This document shows, one piece after another, positions 10,628 to 18,856 of a DNA stretch of 32,000 bases; the stretch's first letter is position 1, and every line of letters starts with the position of its first letter. A model generated the notes under the pieces. It did not search any database and was not told the DNA's origin. It saw only the letters and a program-made list of their open reading frames with translations. The DNA is from Demequinaceae bacterium (GTDB taxonomy: Bacteria > Actinomycetota > Actinomycetes > Actinomycetales > Demequinaceae): the NCBI GenBank assembly GCA_965250005.1, contig OZ252279.1, positions 840,001 through 872,000 of the forward strand, in the 5' to 3' direction. Both the position numbers and the translations under genes were made by a program.

Positions 10628-11470
10628 CTACTGTTCGGCCAACCACTCCGCGTAGCCGGTCGCGTGGCCGGCGTCATACCCGGCAACCCAGCCCGCGTTG
10701 TAGCCGTTTACGAAGGCCACCGAGCCGCTATTGGTCGGCGGTGCATTGTCAGGCGCCTCGCCCGCTCGGCCATCCGCGTAGCCTTGCCAGTCACCTTCAT
10801 GTACGCCCTCGCCGTGTCCCAGGTTGTAGTCCCAGTCTGCGAGCGCGGCTTGGCCAGCGGCGTAGCCGTCATCGTACTTACTCCGCCAACCTGCCTGCCA
10901 ACCTGCAATGTAATCTGCCGAAGACGAGCAATCGTCAGGGGTGTCGTCGAATCCATTGTTGTCGTGGCCGTCCTGGTAGCCGGCCGCGTGCCCGTAGGAT
11001 TCGCCGTCGGCGAATCCGCTCGCGTATTCCTCAGACGGGTCCTGCGTGGGGACGGGGTCCGGGTGCGGGTCGGGGTCCGGGTGCGGGTCGGGATCGCTCG
11101 CGGTTTCACCCTCTGGAGCGGGCTCGTGCGTCTCCGTTTCCGGTTCTTCCGCGACGTGAGTGGGCGCTGGGCTGGGTGTGTGCTCAGCAACCTGATGCGG
11201 GTCGGGATCGGGGCTGTGTGTTGCACTCGGCGCGGGCGTCACGGATCCGGCAGCTATGTCGCCGCTTGCCTGGACGATGTTGGCCACCGCCATGCCGCCA
11301 AGCAACAATCCAGCGCCCACCGCGAGCGCCCCACCGCCGAGTTCCGCATGCTTGACCAAGCGGCCGCGGCGTGCCGCGCCCATCAGTTTCGCATCGGACG
11401 TATGCGCGCCCGGCTTCTGGTGCGCCGCGTCGCTCGCCATTTCTTCCATCATGTCGTGGATATTCTTCAT
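10628..11470 (-). CDS. Sigma-coupled single-pass membrane protein with acidic Pro/Asp linker and Gly-aromatic tetrad-repeat ectodomain (module B partner)
   Basis: ORF 10628-11662 trimmed to MKNIHDMMEEM. Its ATG (11468-11470) overlaps the sigma B stop (TGATG). One TM (GGGALAVGAGLLLGGMAVANIV), then a PDPDPH linker, then repeats such as FADGESYGHAAGYQDGH, IAGWQAGW, YDDGYAAG, NGYNAGWVAGYDAGHATGYAEW. Confidence 0.75.
   Translation of the reverse strand: MKNIHDMMEEMASDAAHQKPGAHTSDAKLMGAARRGRLVKHAELGGGALAVGAGLLLGGMAVANIVQASGDIAAGSVTPAPSATHSPDPDPHQVAEHTPSPAPTHVAEEPETETHEPAPEGETASDPDPHPDPDPHPDPVPTQDPSEEYASGFADGESYGHAAGYQDGHDNNGFDDTPDDCSSSADYIAGWQAGWRSKYDDGYAAGQAALADWDYNLGHGEGVHEGDWQGYADGRAGEAPDNAPPTNSGSVAFVNGYNAGWVAGYDAGHATGYAEWLAEQ
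11054..11095. repeat. 18-bp tandem repeat, about 2.3 copies, encoding (DPDPHP)n
   Basis: ggggtccgggtgcgggtc occurs at 11054-11071 and 11072-11089, plus a partial third copy. In frame within the module B partner. Confidence 0.85.
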
Positions 11471-12015
11471 CACTTGCCTCCATTTCCTAGGGCCACGCGC
11501 GCGGTTTCCCGCGGCGCAGCGTCGACCGCATCGCTTCCCAGCCGGACCCTGAGCTTGCCCGAAGCGTTGAAGACATATCGCTTCACCGTGCCTTCGGCGA
11601 GCTTCAGCGCGACTGAAATCTGTGGGGTTGTCATGTCCTCGAAGTACTTGAGCACGATGCACGCGCGTTCCTGGGGGCTGAGCCCCGCGAGCGCGCTGTG
11701 CAGATCCGCATGAGCGCCTACCCAGCCGTCATGACTTTCCGAAGCCTCGGGCAAGGCAATCGTCGCTTTCTTGGCGTTCGCGACGTTCGCCCGCCGAGCC
11801 CGACTGATTACTTCATTGGCGATTGCCCGCTTCACGTAGGACTCGGCTGAATCCACGGTGGTTTTCGACCGCCCGCGCACGAATGCCTTGACGATCGCTT
11901 CTTGAGCAACTTCCTCGGCGTCGGCCATCGAACCGGTCAAGAGATAGGCGTAGCCCACAAGCGCGCGACGCCGGTCGCGCACGACGCGCTCCATCACACT
12001 GTGCCAACTCTCCAT
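11470..12015 (-). CDS. ECF sigma factor, module B (paralogue of modules C, D, E)
   Basis: ORF 11470-12114 trimmed to MESWHSVMERVV (ATG 12013-12015, GGAGG 5 nt upstream). Region 2: RRALVGYAYLLTGSMADAEEVAQEAIVKAF. Region 4: LSPQERACIVLKYFEDMTTPQISVALKLAEGTVKRYVFNASGKLR. Confidence 0.85.
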   Translation of the reverse strand: MESWHSVMERVVRDRRRALVGYAYLLTGSMADAEEVAQEAIVKAFVRGRSKTTVDSAESYVKRAIANEVISRARRANVANAKKATIALPEASESHDGWVGAHADLHSALAGLSPQERACIVLKYFEDMTTPQISVALKLAEGTVKRYVFNASGKLRVRLGSDAVDAAPRETARVALGNGGK

Positions 12016-12330
12016 CGTGACCTCCGCTAGTGGTGCTCTCGTGTACTTAGACGCCACAGGTACACGATTGGTTGTATTGGCCCTCAAGTTTGCCGTGCGC
12101 GGCTTGGCCATCAAATTTCTTTGAGAAATGGTGAATCAAGGCCGGAGCACAGCAACCTAGCCGACGAACGTTCAGAAGTCGCATCCGGCTGCGACGCCCG
12201 CGGCATTGCGTTTCCTGGCGTTGACGGAAGCAAGGTTGGCGCGGTTCGAAGCCATAATCACCCGCGATAAGAACTGGGAGGCGCACCACATCCCACAAAC
12301 TGCCATGTCCCGGCCGGCCACCCATAGATA

Positions 12331-12577: not shown

Positions 12578-13771
12578 CTAGAAGGTCTCGGCGTAGGCCG
12601 CCACACCCGCTGCGTACCCCGGGCCGTAGCTCGAGAGATAGCCGTCGGAGTAGCCATTCTGGAACGGGTACCAACTACCCCACTCGCTCTCTGGGTAGAA
12701 TTCGTTGCGTCCGTCCGGGGCATCGTCGCGGCTTCCGAAACCGTCGTCGTACCCGTCGGCGTAGCCATCGGCGGCGCCCGCGACCCAGCCATCATCGTAG
12801 GCCTTGTCGATCAGTGCCGCGAGGTGAGCCACTCCCTCCGCGTAGCCATCGGCGTACCCGATTCCGTAAGAAGCCTGGAAGCCAAGGCGCAGCCACTCTC
12901 GTTCGATCTCCGGTACCGATGCGTTGTAGTCACGGTCATTTGCGCCGTCATCGTAACCCTCCTCGTAGCCCCACTCCAGGCCCAATGCGTAGCCAGCTAC
13001 GTAGTCGTCTTCAGCCTCTTGCTCGCCGTGGGCGTACGCGTCCGCGTACGTCGCGGCGTACCCGGCTGCGTAGCCATCGCGGTAGGCCTCAGAACCATCG
13101 CCAACCTCAAATGACGCGTCGAACTCGTTGCCGTGGTATCCGTCTTGCACGCCTTGCTCTGACGCGGCGCCACTACCCGCTTCGTAGCCGTCGGCGTAGC
13201 CGCCGTCACCCTCTGGCGCGGGCTCGTCGTTCGGCTCGTCGTTCGGCTCGTCGTTCGGCTCGTCGTTCGGCTCGTCGTTCGGCTCGTCGTTCGGCTCGTC
13301 GTTCGGCTCGTCGTTCGGCTCGTCGTTCGGCTCGTCGTTCGGCTCGTCGTTCGGCTCGTCGTTCGGCTCGTCGTTCGGCTCGTCGTTCGATTCCGTCTGA
13401 CCGTCGCCTTCGTGTTCGTCTGCGTCAGTTTCTGTCGGGTGGTCAGGCTCGGGTTCATCATGCTCGGTTGCTTCGTTCTCTTCCTTCTCAACTTCTCGGT
13501 TCTCAAGTTCGTCGAGCCAGTCCTCGAATACATGGCCAGGGTCGTCGACACTGTTTGCGTCGGCGGCGTCTACGATGTTCGCAACGGCGACGCCGCCAAA
13601 GATGAGGCCGACAGACGCGACGAATGCCATCCCCGCGAGCCCCGTGGCCCACCTGGCGCGACTGCGGCGCGCTTGATCGATCAGTTCGACCCCGTCCGTG
13701 GCCGCCTTGGCCTTGTGCTCGGCGCCCGCTGCCGTAGCTAGGTCGCTCAGCGCACTGTTCATGTCGTTCAT
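12578..13771 (-). CDS. Sigma-coupled single-pass membrane protein with (NDEP)14 stalk and large Gly-aromatic tetrad-repeat ectodomain (module C partner)
   Basis: 397 aa. Its ATG overlaps the sigma C stop (ATGA at 13768-13771). One TM (WATGLAGMAFVASVGLIFGGVAVANIV), an acidic linker, (NDEP)14, then repeats such as YADGYEAG, YRDGYAAGYAATYADAYAHG, WGYEEGYDDG, IGYADGYAEG, DGYADGYDDGF, NGYSDGYLSSYGPGYAAG. Confidence 0.8.
   Translation of the reverse strand: MNDMNSALSDLATAAGAEHKAKAATDGVELIDQARRSRARWATGLAGMAFVASVGLIFGGVAVANIVDAADANSVDDPGHVFEDWLDELENREVEKEENEATEHDEPEPDHPTETDADEHEGDGQTESNDEPNDEPNDEPNDEPNDEPNDEPNDEPNDEPNDEPNDEPNDEPNDEPNDEPNDEPAPEGDGGYADGYEAGSGAASEQGVQDGYHGNEFDASFEVGDGSEAYRDGYAAGYAATYADAYAHGEQEAEDDYVAGYALGLEWGYEEGYDDGANDRDYNASVPEIEREWLRLGFQASYGIGYADGYAEGVAHLAALIDKAYDDGWVAGAADGYADGYDDGFGSRDDAPDGRNEFYPESEWGSWYPFQNGYSDGYLSSYGPGYAAGVAAYAETF
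13220..13387. repeat. Perfect 12-bp tandem array, 14 copies, encoding (NDEP)14
   Basis: The plus-strand unit cggctcgtcgtt (minus AAC GAC GAG CCG) occurs 14 times with one substitution in the terminal unit (ggg for cgg). The copy number agrees with the ORF length (128 + 56 + 213 = 397 aa). Confidence 0.97.
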
Positions 13772-14316
13772 CGCGTTCCTCCATCTTTGACTGCCACGCG
13801 GATAAGTTCCCGTGGTTCCGGATCAGCCATCGTGCTTCCCAGGGTGTCGCGGAGTTTCTCGGCCGCGTTGTGCAGGTAGCGCTTGACCGTGCCCGCCGAG
13901 AGCCTGAGCTCATCTGCGATTTGCGCCACTGTCATATCCTCGAAGTACCGCATAACTACGCACGCTCGTTCTTGCGCGCTCAATCCGGCAAGGGCCTTGT
14001 GAATGTCTGCGTGGACTCCTACCCACGTCTCGTGACCGGGCTCCGACTCCGCTGCAGCGAGGGCGGCGCTTCTTGCGGCAGCGACCTTTCGGTGCCGGGC
14101 ACGGTTGATCGTTTCGTTGACGATTGCCCTCTTGATATACGCTTCCGCGGTCTCGACTTCCCTCTTGGCCCGCCCACGAGCGAAAGTCTTGACGATCGCG
14201 TCCTGCGCAATCTCCTCGGCTTCGGACATTGACCCCGATACCAAGAACGCGTAACCCACAAGCGCATGGCGACGCTCGCGAACGATCCGCTCCATCACCT
14301 CGGCCCAACTAGTCAT
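13768..14316 (-). CDS. ECF sigma factor, module C
   Basis: ORF 13768-14355 trimmed to MTSWAEVMERIV (ATG 14314-14316, GGAGG upstream). RHALVGYAFLVSGSMSEAEEIAQDAIVKTF and LSAQERACVVMRYFEDMTVAQIADELRLSAGTVKRYLHNAAEKLR. It is the closest paralogue of sigma B. Confidence 0.85.
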   Translation of the reverse strand: MTSWAEVMERIVRERRHALVGYAFLVSGSMSEAEEIAQDAIVKTFARGRAKREVETAEAYIKRAIVNETINRARHRKVAAARSAALAAAESEPGHETWVGVHADIHKALAGLSAQERACVVMRYFEDMTVAQIADELRLSAGTVKRYLHNAAEKLRDTLGSTMADPEPRELIRVAVKDGGTR

Positions 14317-14340
14317 GCGCGCCTCCGTCGACTGTCCCTT

Positions 14341-14402
14341 CACTAAGACAGACACCGTAACGCCGCTTTTCGTTGTAGCCCAAGTCTGTGAGGTTTCTCA
14401 CA
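14341..14402 (-). promoter_or_regulatory. Upstream region of sigma C: CRP/GlxR-type box plus a block shared with the sigma B upstream region
   Basis: TGTGA-GGTTTC-TCACA at 14387-14402. The adjacent minus-strand sequence is ACTTGGGCTACAACG-N17-GTCTGTCTTAGTG. The sigma B upstream region (12045-12091) has ACTTGAGGGCCAATACAACC-N17-GTCTAAGTA. Confidence 0.4.
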
Positions 14403-14496
14403 CGCGCTCCGCCAGCCGCGCACAACCCTTAGATCGGCGTGCCGCGTGGGACGCGCCAGCGGCCCGCCTGCGCCGGGTCTCTCGCCAGGTCTCGTT

Positions 14497-15273
14497 CTAA
14501 TCGTCTTCGTCGTCTTGAGGGCCCCGGGAATCCTTCTTCGACTTGTCCTCGCTCTTGCCGTTCCCCTGGTTTTCGGGTCCTTGCGCATTCCCTTGCGCAT
14601 TCCCTTGCGCATTCCCTTGCGCATTCCCTTGCGCATTCCCTTGCGCATTCCGGCCGCTAGAGGAATTTGCGTCACCGGCATTCGCTGAAGAGCCCTCCGC
14701 TCGACCCGGGTTTTGCGCCCCGTGGGTCTTCGATTCATCGACGAACCCATCCACGTACCCATCGGCGAAGCCCCGCTGGTATCCCTCCTCATACGTAACG
14801 CCATCCTGGGCCGCGACGCGAGAAACCATGTCCGAGTCGATTCGCTCCGTCAGGCTCGCGCCGTAGATCAATCCCTCGGCATAGCCGTCTAGGTATCCCG
14901 CTGCAAGGCCTGCCTCAAACTCGTCAATCCCGTCGGAGTGCTCCGCGTTGCGGAGCGCCTGAAGCGCGGGGCCGACGCTACTCGGGTTGACCGTAGGAGG
15001 CGCGCTAGGGCCAAGGGAGGCTGCGTGCTCTGGGAGTTCAATGCTCGTCGCAGCTTGCGCACCCTCCGTCGAGGTCACCGCCGCAATCGCGGCGGAGCCG
15101 ATAGCCACCCCCACAACGCTGGCCAGAGCGGCGCTCGCGACTGCCGTGAGTCGCATGGCCTTGCCGCGCCTCACTGCCCGCACAACTTCCGTACCATCGT
15201 CCTCGGTCATGATCCGCGTACGGGTAGCGGCCGCGCGCGACAAACCCGAGAGCCTCTCACCCAAGATTCTCAT
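14497..15273 (-). CDS. Sigma-coupled single-pass membrane protein with Gly-aromatic tetrad repeats and C-terminal (GNAQ)6 array (module D partner)
   Basis: 258 aa. Its ATG overlaps the sigma D stop (ATGA at 15270-15273). One TM (LTAVASAALASVVGVAIGSAAIAAV), then EAGLAAGYLDGYAEGLIYG and EEGYQRGFADGYVDGFVDE, then (G/R)NAQ x6 and a Lys/Asp-rich tail. Confidence 0.75.
   Translation of the reverse strand: MRILGERLSGLSRAAATRTRIMTEDDGTEVVRAVRRGKAMRLTAVASAALASVVGVAIGSAAIAAVTSTEGAQAATSIELPEHAASLGPSAPPTVNPSSVGPALQALRNAEHSDGIDEFEAGLAAGYLDGYAEGLIYGASLTERIDSDMVSRVAAQDGVTYEEGYQRGFADGYVDGFVDESKTHGAQNPGRAEGSSANAGDANSSSGRNAQGNAQGNAQGNAQGNAQGNAQGPENQGNGKSEDKSKKDSRGPQDDEDD
14581..14652. repeat. 12-bp tandem array, 6 copies, encoding (GNAQ)6
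   Basis: ttgcgcattccc x5 (14581-14640) plus ttgcgcattccg (14641-14652). In frame in the module D partner. Confidence 0.97.
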
Positions 15274-15818
15274 TGCCCAACCCCGGTTCGTAGCGCTGCG
15301 CGGATCATCGCATGCTGGTCGCGCGGCTGACTGGACGCTTCTAGAGAGGTCTCAATTTTCGATATGGCGTTCTCCATGTAGCGGTCCACGGTCGTGACGG
15401 ACAGCCGCGTAAGAGCGACGATTTGAGCAGTCGATCGCTGGTCCACGTATCGAAGCACCACGCACGCTCTCTCCGCGACAGTCAATTCCTCGATCGCGTC
15501 GTGAACATCGGAGTGTATTCCCATCCACGGTTCACTTCTTCGCGTTGGAATCCGCCCCGTCAAGGATGCTCCGCGAGACTTTTGCGCGGGGTCGCGGCGC
15601 GCACGGTCAACAAGGCTCTTAACGATTCGGGCCTCAATACGGTCCTCGGCATCGCGGACGGTGAGACCGCTCTTGGCGCGGGAAAGAATTCCGACGATCG
15701 CGTCTTGCGCTGCCTGTTCCGCGTGGGGCATGGACCCGCAGATGAGAAAGGCGTAGCCCACGAGGGAGGGCCGACGCTCGCGCGCGATGGCCTCGATGAC
15801 TCCTGGCAACTCTGCCAT
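15270..15818 (-). CDS. ECF sigma factor, module D (more divergent paralogue)
   Basis: ORF 15270-15848 trimmed to MAELPGVIEAIARERRPSLVGYAFLICGSMPHAEQAAQDAIV (ATG 15816-15818, GAGGAG 8 nt upstream). Region 4: LTVAERACVVLRYVDQRSTAQIVALTRLSVTTVDRYMENAISKI. Confidence 0.8.
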   Translation of the reverse strand: MAELPGVIEAIARERRPSLVGYAFLICGSMPHAEQAAQDAIVGILSRAKSGLTVRDAEDRIEARIVKSLVDRARRDPAQKSRGASLTGRIPTRRSEPWMGIHSDVHDAIEELTVAERACVVLRYVDQRSTAQIVALTRLSVTTVDRYMENAISKIETSLEASSQPRDQHAMIRAALRTGVGQ

Positions 15819-15915
15819 GAGGTGCTCCTCAGGGAACGCAACCCCCACCGGGTCGCTAGTTTAGGCTAGCGCGCACCACAGACAAGTGCAGGGTGAGGCG
15901 CCCCGATCATACCGT

Positions 15916-16182
15916 TTACAACAATATATCCACGACAGATGTGAGAGATTTCACACGGTCCACGCGGGCGTCCGTGACCTCTTGTTCAGGGACCGACGGC
16001 CAGTTTCCGACGCGTTCACACCAGACGCCGCGTAGCCCGGGAGCCTTGGACGCCACCGCGTCGATGTCGAACTCGTCGCCGACGTACATGGTTCGCGCCG
16101 GGTCAGTATTGAGCCAGCGGCACGCCTCGAGGTAGACGCGCGAGTCTGGCTTGCCGAATCCTCTTCCAACACAGCCGAATGA
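15916..16182 (-). pseudogene. HAD-superfamily hydrolase remnant (C-terminal ~88 codons only)
   Basis: FGCVGRGFGKPDSRVYLEACRWLNTDPARTMYVGDEFDIDAVASKAPGLRGVWCER aligns with the C-terminal half of the intact HAD at 18050-18856 (VGKPDPRVFLLACEKLGTEPGQTLYVGDEFDIDGLGALNAGLQSAWLDR). No DxDxT motif-I region is found upstream in any frame. Confidence 0.55.
15940..15955. promoter_or_regulatory. CRP/GlxR-type box upstream of sigma D
   Basis: TGTGA-GAGATT-TCACA, both half-sites perfect, 122-137 nt upstream of the sigma D ATG. Followed on the minus strand by an AT-rich stretch (GGATATATTGTTGTAAACGGTATGAT). Overlaps the last codons of the HAD remnant. Confidence 0.4.
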
Positions 16183-16395
16183 ACGGGTTTGCCGGACTCC
16201 GGGCACAGCCCTACCGACACTTCCCAAGGCCAGGCAATCCGCCCGAAACTTCCCTGGCAAAGGGCGTCTCTTACTGCGCAGGAGGCAGTTCGAAGTTGTC
16301 CCACCAGTGGTCCATATAGATTTCGACGGCTCGGGCGTAGGTTCTCGACCACGATGACCAATGCGCCCCCCAGCCGCAGGAACAACGCGGCCGCA

Positions 16396-16429
16396 CTGTG
16401 GGTCGCGCACGTCTGCGCACGACCCACAG
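16396..16429 (-). terminator. 10-bp perfect stem hairpin just downstream of the ParB/AIPR-like gene
   Basis: CTGTGGGTCG (16396-16405) and CGACCCACAG (16420-16429) with a 14-nt loop, 8 nt after the stop at 16438. No clear U-tract. Confidence 0.4.
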
Positions 16430-16437
16430 CAAGATCC

Positions 16438-17820
16438 CTAGTGGTTCGCGCGCCGCAGGACCGACTCAAAAACATTCTGTGCGAGCCGGTAAACCTCGAT
16501 CGACTTGCCGAACTTCTGCGGGTCATAGTCGAGCGGAGCCATGAAGAGCGAGATCTGCGGCACGATCTCGGCAAGGTGCTTCTTCAGGAAGTCGGCAGGG
16601 TCTACCTTCCAACGCACCGTCTCCCCATCGACTTCAAGGAGCGCACGAAGACCGTATACGTACGGCCAGATGAAGCCCTCGGGCACCCGCCACTCAACAT
16701 TCGTACCCGTGAATGGCGTGACGTGCTGGATCTTGGAGTTCTGATTCATCTTCTTGTTGGCGGTGATCCGGCCCCACTTGCCACTCGCCTCGCTGTTGTA
16801 GAGACCGGGCACATTCGCGTAGATGTAGTCAAACAACTGCGGCATCTTGACCGCGACATCCAACGCGGACTTCACCGAGATGCTCGCAGGCACCTTGGCT
16901 GTCTGGCCAGGAGGAAAGACCTCCTGAGAAGACATGAGGCGCTCGAAACGGGAGACGCAGTCCCCCTTGCTCCGATAGAGGTTCTGAGGAACGGGAGCAG
17001 AGACTTCGCGCTCCTCGGAGTCCTTCGGCAGTTCCTCAACCACACCGAGCGGAACCCACGCGAGCGCGACGATATCGCCAACCTTGATCTTCCCACCCTC
17101 GTTGGTCTTCCACTCCACGTTCTGTGAGACGTCCTTCTGAAGGACTTCCTTGAGGTAGTCGAAGTAGCCCGCCTGGTTCGCCTTGGCCTCAATGCGCAAC
17201 TGCACGTTGTTGTTGCGCGCCGAGCAAATGGCGATGAGGGAGTCGTTGAAGGCGTCGACGGCGATCGGATCCTCAGGCTCCGACGGCACAATAAGTTCGA
17301 CGGGGACGAGAACATCCAGTTCAGGCGCAACGTCCTGTTGCGCCTTCACGCGGGTCTTGAGCGCACGCAGGGCTTCCGATTGCGCGTTCCAGAGGTCTCG
17401 GAACGCGAGCCAGTTCTTCGCCCCGCGAATATCCTTCTCGTTCACACCGGCAACCCGAAGCAGAAGGCGGCCGATCTCAAGCGAGTTGTGCCCGCCGTCA
17501 AGGATGCCCTCAAGCCGCGGCTCAACCACGCTGATCTCGTAACGGCCACGATCCCGCCGCGTGTACTTCGCGGATGCGAGGAGGATGCCCTTCGTCTTCA
17601 GGGGGAAGATGTCTGGAGTTTTCTCGATCGACTCTGCAATTGCGTCCGTCACGGACCCAACGCGCGCCGACCGGGGATTCGCATCGAGATCCACAACTTC
17701 GAGGATGTCAATGAAATTCTTGATCCGTACCATCCCCATGACTCGGACGATGTGATCAATTTCCTGTTCGAAGCTGTGCTCGAACTTGATGGTTACTGCG
17801 GTTTCAATAGAAGGCTTCAT
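16438..17820 (-). CDS. ParB/sulfiredoxin-like N-terminal domain protein, AIPR/DndB-like abortive-infection candidate
   Basis: ORF 16438-17877 trimmed to MKPSIETAVTIKF (ATG 17818-17820, GAAGGGGG upstream), 460 aa. VVDLDANPRSARVGSVTDAIAESI and EGILDGGHNSLEIG resemble ParB-fold NPR and DGxH(R/N) motifs. ICSARNNNVQLRIEAKANQ recalls AIPR-type blocks. GC looks lower than the flanks by eye. The function is inference. Confidence 0.7.
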   Translation of the reverse strand: MKPSIETAVTIKFEHSFEQEIDHIVRVMGMVRIKNFIDILEVVDLDANPRSARVGSVTDAIAESIEKTPDIFPLKTKGILLASAKYTRRDRGRYEISVVEPRLEGILDGGHNSLEIGRLLLRVAGVNEKDIRGAKNWLAFRDLWNAQSEALRALKTRVKAQQDVAPELDVLVPVELIVPSEPEDPIAVDAFNDSLIAICSARNNNVQLRIEAKANQAGYFDYLKEVLQKDVSQNVEWKTNEGGKIKVGDIVALAWVPLGVVEELPKDSEEREVSAPVPQNLYRSKGDCVSRFERLMSSQEVFPPGQTAKVPASISVKSALDVAVKMPQLFDYIYANVPGLYNSEASGKWGRITANKKMNQNSKIQHVTPFTGTNVEWRVPEGFIWPYVYGLRALLEVDGETVRWKVDPADFLKKHLAEIVPQISLFMAPLDYDPQKFGKSIEVYRLAQNVFESVLRRANH

Positions 17821-17878
17821 CAGATGAGCCCCCTTCCCCTGCTGTTGCAGGCGTAGGGGTGCACAGAAAACGGGCATG

Positions 17879-17908
17879 AAAAAACCGCCTCGTCATAGAC
17901 GAAGGCGG
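17879..17908 (-). terminator. Rho-independent terminator after the gltX-HAD unit
   Basis: The minus strand reads CCGCCTTCGTC-TAT-GACGAGGCGG (one bulge) followed by TTTTTT. It lies about 140 nt downstream of the HAD stop and immediately upstream of the ParB/AIPR-like gene. Confidence 0.65.
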
Positions 17909-18049
17909 CGCTCACGTATCCGTGGTCGCCGTGCACCTGTCCAGGCGTACATTCCGGCCACCCATCCGGGTGACCTCCGTCCAGCATACCGCATCGGCAA
18001 GGAATTGTGAGGCCCTACCGTGTGTCGTCTCGTGAAGCGTCTACCCGCG

Positions 18050-18856
18050 CTAGGTTTGCTCGACCGCGATACGAGCCACGTCGGCAAGCGACGTGGCTCG
18101 TATGAGCCCGCTCTCCTCGGCTGCTTCCATCTCATACGCTGGGATCTCGCGCGTCCGCACCCCCGGACGGTCGAGCCACGCTGATTGGAGCCCGGCATTG
18201 AGAGCGCCCAATCCGTCAATGTCGAATTCGTCGCCCACATAGAGCGTCTGACCTGGTTCCGTGCCGAGTTTCTCGCAGGCCAACAGGAAGACTCGGGGAT
18301 CCGGTTTGCCGACGAATCGCGGCGCTTGAGCGCCTGCGCCGGGAACATTTATAGGATTGGCGTTTCCGAATCCCAGCGTGTCCACGCCGACGAGCATGGG
18401 GACTCGCTCCAGACCAACGGCCGCGAGCTTGCCCGCTTGGTATCCGAATCGCGCATTACTTAGCGCGCCGTACGGGATCGCCTCAGCGTCAAGAAAATCG
18501 AGCAGCGGCGCGGCGTCGGGGTGCGCCACCCAGCCGTTCTGGAACGCCTGCTCGAACACGTCCACCCACTCGACGTACTCGTCGTCGCGGAGATCGGGTC
18601 CCTCGTACACCTGGTGCATGTCAACCACGCGCAGCTTGCGCTGCTCGAAGGCCGACGTCTCGCCGCGAGCGTGTGCGCGGTAGTGGCTGTAACGATCTGC
18701 GCGCCAGAACTCGGTGACCTCGAGCGCAGCTGCACCCGCCCGCAAGTGAGGGACGGCAACTACGGCGATCGCGTGCGCGAACGCCGCCTTGGTATCCACA
18801 AGTGTGTCGTCGATGTCGAGCAGCACTCCGTCAATGTCCCGCCCTCGCGCAGTCAC
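18050..18856 (-). CDS. HAD-superfamily hydrolase
   Basis: ORF 18050-19114 trimmed to an in-frame GTG at 18856 (VTARGRDIDGVLLDIDDTLVDT), 7 nt after the gltX stop. Motif I DIDDT, GKPDPRVF, and motif IV YVGDEFDID. The upstream part of the ORF overlaps gltX and is Arg/Ser-rich. Confidence 0.85.
   Translation of the reverse strand: MTARGRDIDGVLLDIDDTLVDTKAAFAHAIAVVAVPHLRAGAAALEVTEFWRADRYSHYRAHARGETSAFEQRKLRVVDMHQVYEGPDLRDDEYVEWVDVFEQAFQNGWVAHPDAAPLLDFLDAEAIPYGALSNARFGYQAGKLAAVGLERVPMLVGVDTLGFGNANPINVPGAGAQAPRFVGKPDPRVFLLACEKLGTEPGQTLYVGDEFDIDGLGALNAGLQSAWLDRPGVRTREIPAYEMEAAEESGLIRATSLADVARIAVEQT

Follow-up and report, generated by a model that had tools for sequence, protein, structure and literature searches.

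The 32,000-nucleotide (nt) stretch of Demequinaceae DNA analyzed here, hereafter the window, carries an intact gene for a 460-amino acid (aa) protein (16438-17820) resembling AIPR, the ‘abortive infection phage resistance’ family. The gene lies, together with a structured 5′ leader, between two stretches of HAD hydrolase coding sequence. The explanation that best accounts for the locus, to which we assign a probability of about 0.6, is that a gene of a divergent AIPR subfamily sits on a 2.2-kb insert in the HAD gene and is accompanied by its own leader, which would act in cis. Three sets of observations carry this explanation: homology to AIPR proteins over nearly the whole length of the protein, a leader that is conserved, covarying and position-specific, and related genomes in which the site of insertion is empty. 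All features given by window coordinates lie on the minus strand; L-numbers denote loci.

An AIPR subfamily and its neighbors

The open reading frame (ORF) reported in a first-pass annotation of the window is present and uninterrupted, as shown by the ORF call and by a 56-sequence family alignment. All 53 residues invariant in that alignment are found in the window protein, and the three motifs quoted in the annotation fall on invariant columns (N48 P49 R50; D108 G109 G110 H111 N112; A201 R202 N203 N204 N205). An alternative upstream ATG at 17877 would give a protein of 479 aa (19 residues more); the start at 17820 is preferred because the N-termini of homologues agree with it, as does a ribosome-binding site (RBS), GGAAGGGGG, 8 nt 5′ of this ATG.

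Recognition of the protein by existing models is marginal. A Pfam search returned the model AIPR (PF10592) at 12.4 bits (E 0.12; residues 46-113, profile positions 2-71 of 308), under the cut-off of 25; the ParBc, DUF262 and DndB models gave no match. AIPR is matched by 37 of the 56 aligned family members, always over just the first ∼74 of the 308 profile positions, and of 10 members scanned one by one, 8 score at or above this cut-off (25.0-31.8 bits), on profile positions 1-75 only. Three further comparisons extend well past this segment. In a tblastn search against plasmids the protein matched genes labeled ‘AIPR family protein’ in GenBank (E 8e-13; residues 35-440, 88% of the query). With hhalign, the family profile aligned to a bona fide AIPR protein (L115:1892-3091, itself matching Pfam AIPR at 1.1e-32 over positions 2-298) with a probability of 99% and an E value of 7.2e-18 over 335 columns, the shared motifs being NPR, K-x-K/R-G-I-L, GILDGGH, ARNxxVQ and a C-terminal PQxxGK. 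Finally, an AlphaFold (AF2) model of the protein (predicted local distance difference test (pLDDT) 92.8, predicted template-modeling (TM) score 0.84) was matched by Foldseek in BFVD to a phage ‘AIPR protein’ (E 7.5e-7, TM 0.48/0.57). Taken together, these matches indicate that the relationship spans the whole protein and that the family is a divergent subfamily of AIPR, a membership that the annotation had suggested from motifs.

The subfamily is large. A 90% cluster database contains no fewer than 1,635 full-length homologues, 450-470 aa long, and a profile search of 50% cluster representatives returned 1,103 clusters at E ≤ 1e-3; their sources include Actinomycetota, Pseudomonadota, Bacillota and many metagenomes. 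An annotated phage collection contained no match to the window protein. Judged by its full-length homology, the window protein is a member of a distinct and widely scattered AIPR subfamily. Canonical AIPR shares near full-length homology and motifs with it, but has nothing equivalent to the ∼50 residues (query 123-170) that follow the DGGH helix.

AbiU1/AIPR/COG1479 and the N-terminus of DndB have been assigned to the ParB superfamily, with ties to restriction-modification systems (PMC3632139; PMC3506569). In the AF2 model of the window protein, NPR is followed by a helix and then by a strand (105-108) that ends in DGGHN at the start of helix 110-123; it thus contains the NPR-type motif, and the strand with D-G-x-H/Q-R/N at a helix start, by which the ParB/Srx-fold superfamily is recognized. 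The same arrangement is seen in the N-terminal part of DUF262/GmrSD proteins and in DndB (DGQHR), and GmrSD N-terminal (DUF262) proteins were matched by Foldseek in BFVD at E 2e-3 and 1e-2 (probability 0.97-0.99); a Spo0J/ParB-like protein followed at E 0.29. Unlike DUF262, ParBc and DndB proteins, however, the family gave no match to the corresponding models (PF02195, PF03235 and DndB; the window protein was searched to E 1-10 and the 56 members to E 0.01), and outside DGGHN the alignment has no invariant histidine from which an HNH/DUF1524-type nuclease site might be built. A search of PDB sequences with the family profile returned chance matches only.

About 90 family loci were collected and their neighboring ORFs clustered. 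Among the 47 that are well flanked (at least 2 kb on both sides), recurrent partners are found in 17, on the same strand and mostly immediately downstream of the AIPR-like gene; the remaining loci have none. The first partner is a ∼1,030-aa protein combining a PLD/HKD domain with an SNF2 helicase (PADLOC models HKD+Snf2, 1e-55, and DrmD, 9e-33) and the second an 850-1,330-aa methyltransferase of Eco57I/type ISP type (REase_MTase_IIG, up to 5e-256; DrmMI, 1e-50). In 10-12 loci the AIPR-like gene is followed by a conserved pair encoding proteins of ∼200 and ∼375 aa, in reading frames that overlap or abut (L018 9404-11130; L020 9407-11160; L056 7362-9082); the larger has a faint Swt1-like HEPN match (E 0.008) and neither is in PADLOC. 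The full operon of the Agromyces locus L020 comprises the AIPR-like gene, p199, p375, HKD-SNF2 and the methyltransferase. These neighbors resemble parts of DISARM and type IIG systems, but no DrmA/DrmB core was seen, an AIPR-like first gene lies outside the definition of DISARM, and none of the genes is in the window. AIPR has been linked to operons of restriction-modification type and to defense islands (PMC3506569). Given such restriction-like neighbors the family is defense-associated by context, as the first-pass annotation had held, although the window itself is not among the 17 loci. From this family context we infer a defense role for the window gene.

A related architecture was seen in protein P0122 (2,054 aa), in which a UvrD-type helicase and a PD-(D/E)XK nuclease precede an AIPR-like region (1587-2050). 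Either the parts are genuinely fused or gene calling has read through from one to the next; a genuine fusion would tie the family to a helicase-nuclease for a second time.

Within about 10 kb of the window gene there is no partner methylase, helicase or ATPase: tblastn with the usual partners found nothing in the window, and Pfam domains on ten ORFs between 6.4 and 26.7 kb are housekeeping only (acyltransferase, tRNA-editing protein, VIT1, LeuA, aconitase, IclR and a third sigma factor). The absence of a partner methylase, ATPase or toxin had been remarked upon earlier and is upheld, but the accompanying claim that such solitude would be unusual is not: solitude is common in the family. Lone copies occur, for example, between rsfS and the gene for RNase T and on Roseomonas plasmids, and a single-gene AIPR cassette from the E. 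coli P4 hotspots was cloned as pFR77 by Rousset et al. (PMC9122126).

It is nevertheless possible, if doubtful, that the window gene is all that remains here of a restriction-like, multi-gene system (AIPR-like protein, HKD-SNF2 helicase and type IIG methyltransferase, optionally joined by the two small proteins), persisting as a neutral or mildly regulated passenger that confers no defense alone. Homologues with 48-51% identity do stand in such operons (L020, L031, L056, L018), the window contains none of the partners, and the lone cassette cloned from the P4 hotspots is not one of the systems described as protective. Against this, the ORF is full-length with each invariant residue kept, the leader is intact and conserved, and the 78%-identical copy in L001 retains both gene and leader; no trace of a partner gene was found in the 276 bp downstream. 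Since most family loci have no recurrent partner, a stand-alone role is plausible.

A HAD gene probably divided by insertion

Upstream of the AIPR-like gene is a HAD hydrolase gene (18050-18856; Pfam Hydrolase, 1.7e-16) with an open frame and all HAD motifs; downstream is a HAD fragment (15916-16161) comprising the last 80 codons and the stop. The fragment is real (tblastn E ∼1e-30, 56-59% identity to the C-termini of Demequinaceae HAD proteins, over 15919-16161 with the stop at 15916-15918), but it lacks about two thirds of the gene rather than the half first supposed. Its alignment to relatives is gapless from GFGKPD on.

Syntenic loci were found by searching Demequinaceae-type genomes with the HAD protein. 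In the closest, L002, gltX is 81.5% identical and the order is fah, gltX, HAD, sigma/anti-sigma pairs; L006 shows the gltX-HAD-sigma part. In both a sigma gene directly follows HAD, that is, the site is empty, and neither an AIPR-like match nor a second HAD match was found in the fetched relatives. The proposal that the gene is acquired DNA is thereby supported. Mapping of the junctions places an insertion of 2,204 bp at 16162-18365, at the GFG|KPD codons of the native gene. It contains a surrogate HAD 3′ end, a spacer, the leader, the AIPR-like gene, a downstream hairpin and 276 bp without detectable similarity. An 8-bp direct repeat, GGATTCGG (repeat D16), corresponding to the GFG codons, is present at both junctions, with its left copy at 18366-18373 (10 of 11 identical when the next three bases are included) and its right copy at 16154-16161. 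Sequence 5′ of the right copy shows no homology in register with the native gene (identity 28-30%, background 27 ± 3%). Fragment homology starts exactly at GFGKPD, and joining 18366 to 16153 gives a gene collinear with the HAD of relatives; the spacing between fragment and sigma gene is likewise native-like.

The upstream gene, in turn, carries a 19-aa insert (GNANPINVPGAGAQAPRFV) directly before the conserved GKPD, and its parts differ in their similarity to the two closest relatives (L002/L003). Identity is 65%/62% for the N-terminal two thirds (18366-18856) and 57%/57% for the downstream fragment, but 49%/47% for the last third (18050-18365), under every within-clade value; the surrogate and native ends share 42% protein identity. 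Based on these comparisons, one native HAD gene has probably been split by the insertion. The upstream gene, seemingly intact, would then be a chimera whose 3′ end was imported, and the fragment would be the 3′ end that the native gene lost. The earlier suggestion that a second HAD paralogue had been truncated finds no counterpart in the relatives, which have one HAD.

That the upstream HAD is wholly native, its 19-aa insert a lineage-specific loop, and the fragment a piece of a second paralogue, or else of donor DNA, truncated by the incoming gene, strikes us as unlikely. In its favor, both 3′ ends are similarly identical to more distant relatives, L008 favors the upstream copy, and the upstream HAD has an open frame with its full set of motifs. 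However, each relative examined gave a single HAD match, the fragment begins precisely where the insert lies, joining the parts restores a gapless alignment, and the 8-bp repeat, the native-like spacing and the segmental identities all speak for one divided gene.

The homologue in L001 shares DNA homology with the window over 17970-16450 only, that is, over the leader and gene, and no HAD match is present on its contig. The HAD piece therefore derives from the donor's context and is not part of a standard cassette. The gene is indeed more AT-rich than its surroundings, as had been noted (58.4% GC as opposed to 64.5% in the window), but without a codon-usage signal: GC at third codon positions (GC3) is 0.76, in the range of neighboring genes (0.68-0.85), and the deficit is confined to codon positions 1 and 2. 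The AT-richness thus reflects amino-acid composition, not foreign codon usage, and an argument for recent transfer from GC was dropped, GC3 being native-like.

Integrative elements that replace the 3′ end of a target gene, such as e14 in icd, offer the nearest parallel. Here, too, the target frame is kept open by the 3′ end of the element, the native end is displaced and a short repeat is present at both junctions. A circular intermediate undergoing a single crossover at an 8-bp core would yield the observed layout. The differences are that the insert is 2.2 kb with one gene, that its surrogate end is 19 codons out of register and 42% identical, and that no integrase or recombinase is encoded in its 2,204 bp, which hold just the HAD 3′ end and the AIPR-like gene. 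Terminal inverted repeats were not seen by eye at the ends of the insert. An integron cassette with attC was considered, since a single gene is followed here by a hairpin, and was rejected, also by eye: the R′/R″ core consensus is absent, L001 does not share the 3′ hairpin, and the gene comes with a leader of its own.

The hairpin 3′ of the AIPR-like gene (16396-16429; inverted repeat I7) begins 8 nt past the TAG stop, as reported earlier, and has 13-nt arms that are 92% complementary with a perfect 10-bp core. It probably serves as a transcription terminator, one that lacks a U tract; in L001, where DNA homology ends at 16450, it is not conserved. The 276 bp between it and the HAD fragment (16162-16437) show no similarity to anything fetched, and a NotI-type palindrome, GCGGCCGC, is located at 16387-16394. 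Within the last 20 codons of the upstream HAD, the imported segment holds an inverted repeat (18069-18103) whose 15-bp stem is perfect and whose loop is 5 nt long (ATACGAGCCACGTCG cttgc CGACGTGGCTCGTAT). So long and perfect a stem is unusual within coding sequence and could be a terminator or a recombination site.

Downstream of the fragment is a sigma array on the minus strand (12578-15848 and 11470-12114) made up of two sigma/anti-sigma-like pairs and a third, extracytoplasmic function-type sigma factor. The putative anti-sigma partners contain low-complexity repeats, NDEP ∼14 times (12578-13771) and GNAQ ∼6 times (14497-15273). We regard the array as native because L002 has the same HAD-sigma-anti-sigma-sigma-anti-sigma order.

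The structured leader

The region immediately upstream of the start codon (17821-17977, ∼160 nt) stands out by its conservation: the window and L001 are 87% identical over 170 nt upstream, compared with 75% over the coding sequence. It is supported as an element by this identity, by a covariance model and by its predicted fold (−78.7 kcal/mol, z −3.9). The first element, hairpin H1 (17956-17975), has an 8-bp stem with a GGAU loop (GGTCACCC-GGAT-GGGTGGCC) and shows changes on both sides at 8 of 8 pairs across homologues. Hairpin H2 follows (17931-17950; GTACGCC-TGGACA-GGTGCAC); its 3′ strand is shared with a long-range helix, so that the two structures are mutually exclusive. The 5′ strand of this helix (GGTGCACGG, 17929-17937) pairs with 17858-17866 (CTGTGCACC), which overlaps the anti-Shine-Dalgarno (anti-SD) segment, and the helix occupies a consistent position in about 35 loci. 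Enclosed by it, a terminator scan found a hairpin with a T6 run (17879-17909), 58 nt before the ATG, which is kept in L001 with a compensatory T-A to A-T change. Lastly, minimum free energy and centroid structures both contain an RBS hairpin (17829-17859) in which AGGGGG is paired with an upstream CCCCU. The T6 hairpin had been noted before, at about the same distance from the gene; it is not just the insulator from gltX-HAD that it was then taken for, since it belongs to a leader that accompanies the gene and is present in L001, where the flanking DNA gave no HAD match.

In most other loci the upstream region follows a common plan, whatever the GC content or taxon: H1 with a YGGAY loop, a short linker, H2 with a YGGAY loop, YUCUGG and a variable insert, which in 27 of 54 leaders takes the form of a terminator-like hairpin followed by a run of U. 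The 3′ strand of H2 and its tail find their complement in a segment ∼25 nt 5′ of the start codon, and an RBS-pairing hairpin is found in most leaders inspected. In low-GC loci promoter-like hexamers can be recognized by eye 5′ of the first hairpin. Two subgroups depart from the plan. In seven loci (L095, L105, L107, L108, L026, L081, L082) the variable insert is a third YGGAY-loop hairpin (e.g., CACTGGATAGTG) rather than a terminator-like one, the number of YGGAY hairpins therefore ranging from two to about four. In L054-L061, in which a helicase and a ∼856-aa MmeI-type methyltransferase lie downstream, the leader is much shorter: a promoter-like site (TTGACA...TATAAG) is followed by two small hairpins and a start codon ∼10 nt past the motif, and there is neither long-range helix nor terminator.

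A covariance model of H1 plus H2 (R1), built from 24 sequences, gave 71 matches at E ≤ 1 in 968 kb, all on the sense strand and 47 of them outside the seed. All lie directly 5′ of an AIPR-like gene, save for a weak second match in L082 (E 0.43, at the start of the gene). The window contains a single match (17923-17977, 42.7 bits, E 8.6e-8); none was found in 14 HAD control loci or at the one canonical AIPR locus tested, so that the leader appears dedicated to the subfamily. In the alignment of the 65 distinct matches (A5), 86% of cells are paired as opposed to 63.5% after shuffling (slid controls 39-54%), and 248 cells are compensatory as opposed to 73. Because this alignment was fitted to the model, RNAalifold was run on a plain, sequence-only MAFFT alignment of 25 complete leaders, where it recovered H1 and a 9-bp long-range helix, with compensatory changes (at one pair GC:16 CG:6 GU:3).

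CsrA-type GGA sites are unlikely as a general explanation of the loops: the motif is kept in Actinomycetota, which to our knowledge have no CsrA, and the base two before GGA is C, not A. An 18-nt piece of the leader searched against viral contigs returned four chance matches and one known locus, and was uninformative. Rfam 15 contains no match to the window region, to 16 loci or to a 201-nt stretch, the last searched up to E 10. Among described motifs TwoAYGGAY (RF01731) comes closest, as it also consists of two consecutive YGGAY-loop hairpins, but its Rfam model was not matched at any threshold. It is, however, multi-copy and intergenic (bioRxiv 10.64898/2026.09.22.753630), whereas the leader has no basal stem around both hairpins and is fixed in the 5′ untranslated region with a long-range helix to the RBS region.

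A structured RNA, a terminator-like hairpin and an abortive-infection-type gene in series recall type III toxin-antitoxin systems (ToxIN, AbiQ/antiQ). This layout, together with plasmid copies that adjoin PIN and CcdA toxin-antitoxin genes and insertion sequence (IS) elements, lends some color to the idea that gene and leader form a selfish addiction or stabilization module (toxin-antitoxin-like) without a role in phage defense, or that the protein is a ParB-like DNA-binding regulator; we consider this improbable. In contrast to type III systems, the leader RNA lacks tandem direct repeats and its hairpin stems differ in sequence, the protein is unrelated to the ToxN/AbiQ endoribonucleases, and binding between RNA and protein is here putative.

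Least probable of all is that the hairpins act as DNA, marking the ends of a small mobile cassette of the REP/RAYT or IS200/IS605-like kind or serving as its recognition sites: the cassette does occur in many unrelated contexts, its DNA homology with L001 starts at the first hairpin, and TwoAYGGAY RNAs, with similar loops, adjoin REP arrays in Pseudomonas (bioRxiv 10.64898/2026.09.22.753630), but the hairpins invariably occupy the sense strand and keep a constant distance to the start codon, a covarying helix ends beside the RBS, promoter-like hexamers precede the first hairpin in the low-GC loci, and there is neither a matching element at the 3′ end of the cassette nor an associated transposase.

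A possible switch and its significance

The leader probably controls expression of the AIPR-like gene. The events at the window locus may be pictured as follows. DNA of 2.2 kb would have integrated at the GFG|KPD codons of a single native HAD gene downstream of gltX, its incoming HAD 3′ end keeping the frame open and the last 80 native codons being pushed downstream. The leader would then serve as a cis-acting switch that keeps the gene, which may be toxic, turned off by ending transcription early and by occluding the RBS. Since H2 and the long-range helix share a strand, and the helix overlaps the anti-SD segment, the leader has the look of a two-state switch, in which the 3′ strand of H2 would alternate between the hairpin and pairing with a segment that lies some 25-40 nt 5′ of the start codon. 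Expression would be released by a factor bound at the YGGAY hairpins or by a cue that remodels the fold. The protein would act on foreign nucleic acid as a nucleotide-dependent sensor or effector, working alone or upstream of the HKD-SNF2 nuclease-helicase and methyltransferase; the window copy, lacking partners, would be either a lone abortive-infection gene or an orphaned sensor.

The leader is kept across phyla that have no common GGA-binding regulator, which makes the AIPR-like protein the most economical candidate for the bound factor; the protein itself could, on this reasoning, act on the leader. A bolder proposal, offered tentatively and with the odds against it, is that the leader is a new class of regulatory RNA bound by the AIPR-like protein through the YGGAY loops, gene and leader together making a self-contained RNA-protein module for abortive infection. 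In its logic this would parallel a type III toxin-antitoxin pair: besides limiting expression, the RNA would keep the protein inactive as long as no infection upset the balance. Such a module would account for the frequent solitude of the gene and for the retention of the leader in Actinomycetota, Bacillota and Pseudomonadota.

Several points weigh against our explanation of the locus as an AIPR subfamily gene inserted with a cis-acting leader. No model of PADLOC-DB v2, including those for Mza, DISARM, BREX, Dnd and Ssp, recognizes the window protein (a lone SAVED_HNH match, E 0.051, is at chance level), so that the proposed PADLOC check assigned it to no defense system; models of NCBIfam and PHROGs gave no match either. 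Foldseek of the full AF2 model against PDB found no usable match (best E 0.6), and the N-terminal 135 residues modeled alone gave a low-confidence structure (pLDDT 62), for which reason they were left out of the fold search. A ParB/DUF262-like fold, based on motifs and weak BFVD matches, is accordingly plausible but weakly supported: of the ParB-like claim in the first-pass annotation the motif pattern stands, whereas the fold lacks a PDB match and a ParB-type sequence model. The hairpins that seeded R1 were picked by script for their complementarity, and alignment A5 was fitted to the model; independent support for the leader comes from the location specificity of the R1 matches and from RNAalifold on the unfitted alignment. 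The HAD chimera would hang on a difference of ∼8 residues in 80, and with a native-like GC3 the acquisition is not demonstrably recent. As to function, the activity of this subfamily, like that of AIPR proteins at large, is putative; the lone AIPR cassette of E. coli lies outside the seven P4-hotspot systems described as robustly protective (PMC9122126), and without its usual partners the window copy may be inactive as a system.

The locus is a clear case of a defense-type gene inside a housekeeping gene that brings a replacement 3′ end with it. It also directs attention to a large subfamily, of ∼1,100 clusters at 50% identity, that the Pfam cut-off, NCBIfam and PADLOC all miss. AIPR is among the oldest of the predicted abortive-infection families and its mechanism is still to be found; the leader and the recurrent operon partners are parts beyond what has been described for it. 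If the leader is indeed a switch or an RNA partner, it would provide a route to the control of AIPR and to its triggers, as well as a new RNA motif tied to a defense gene.

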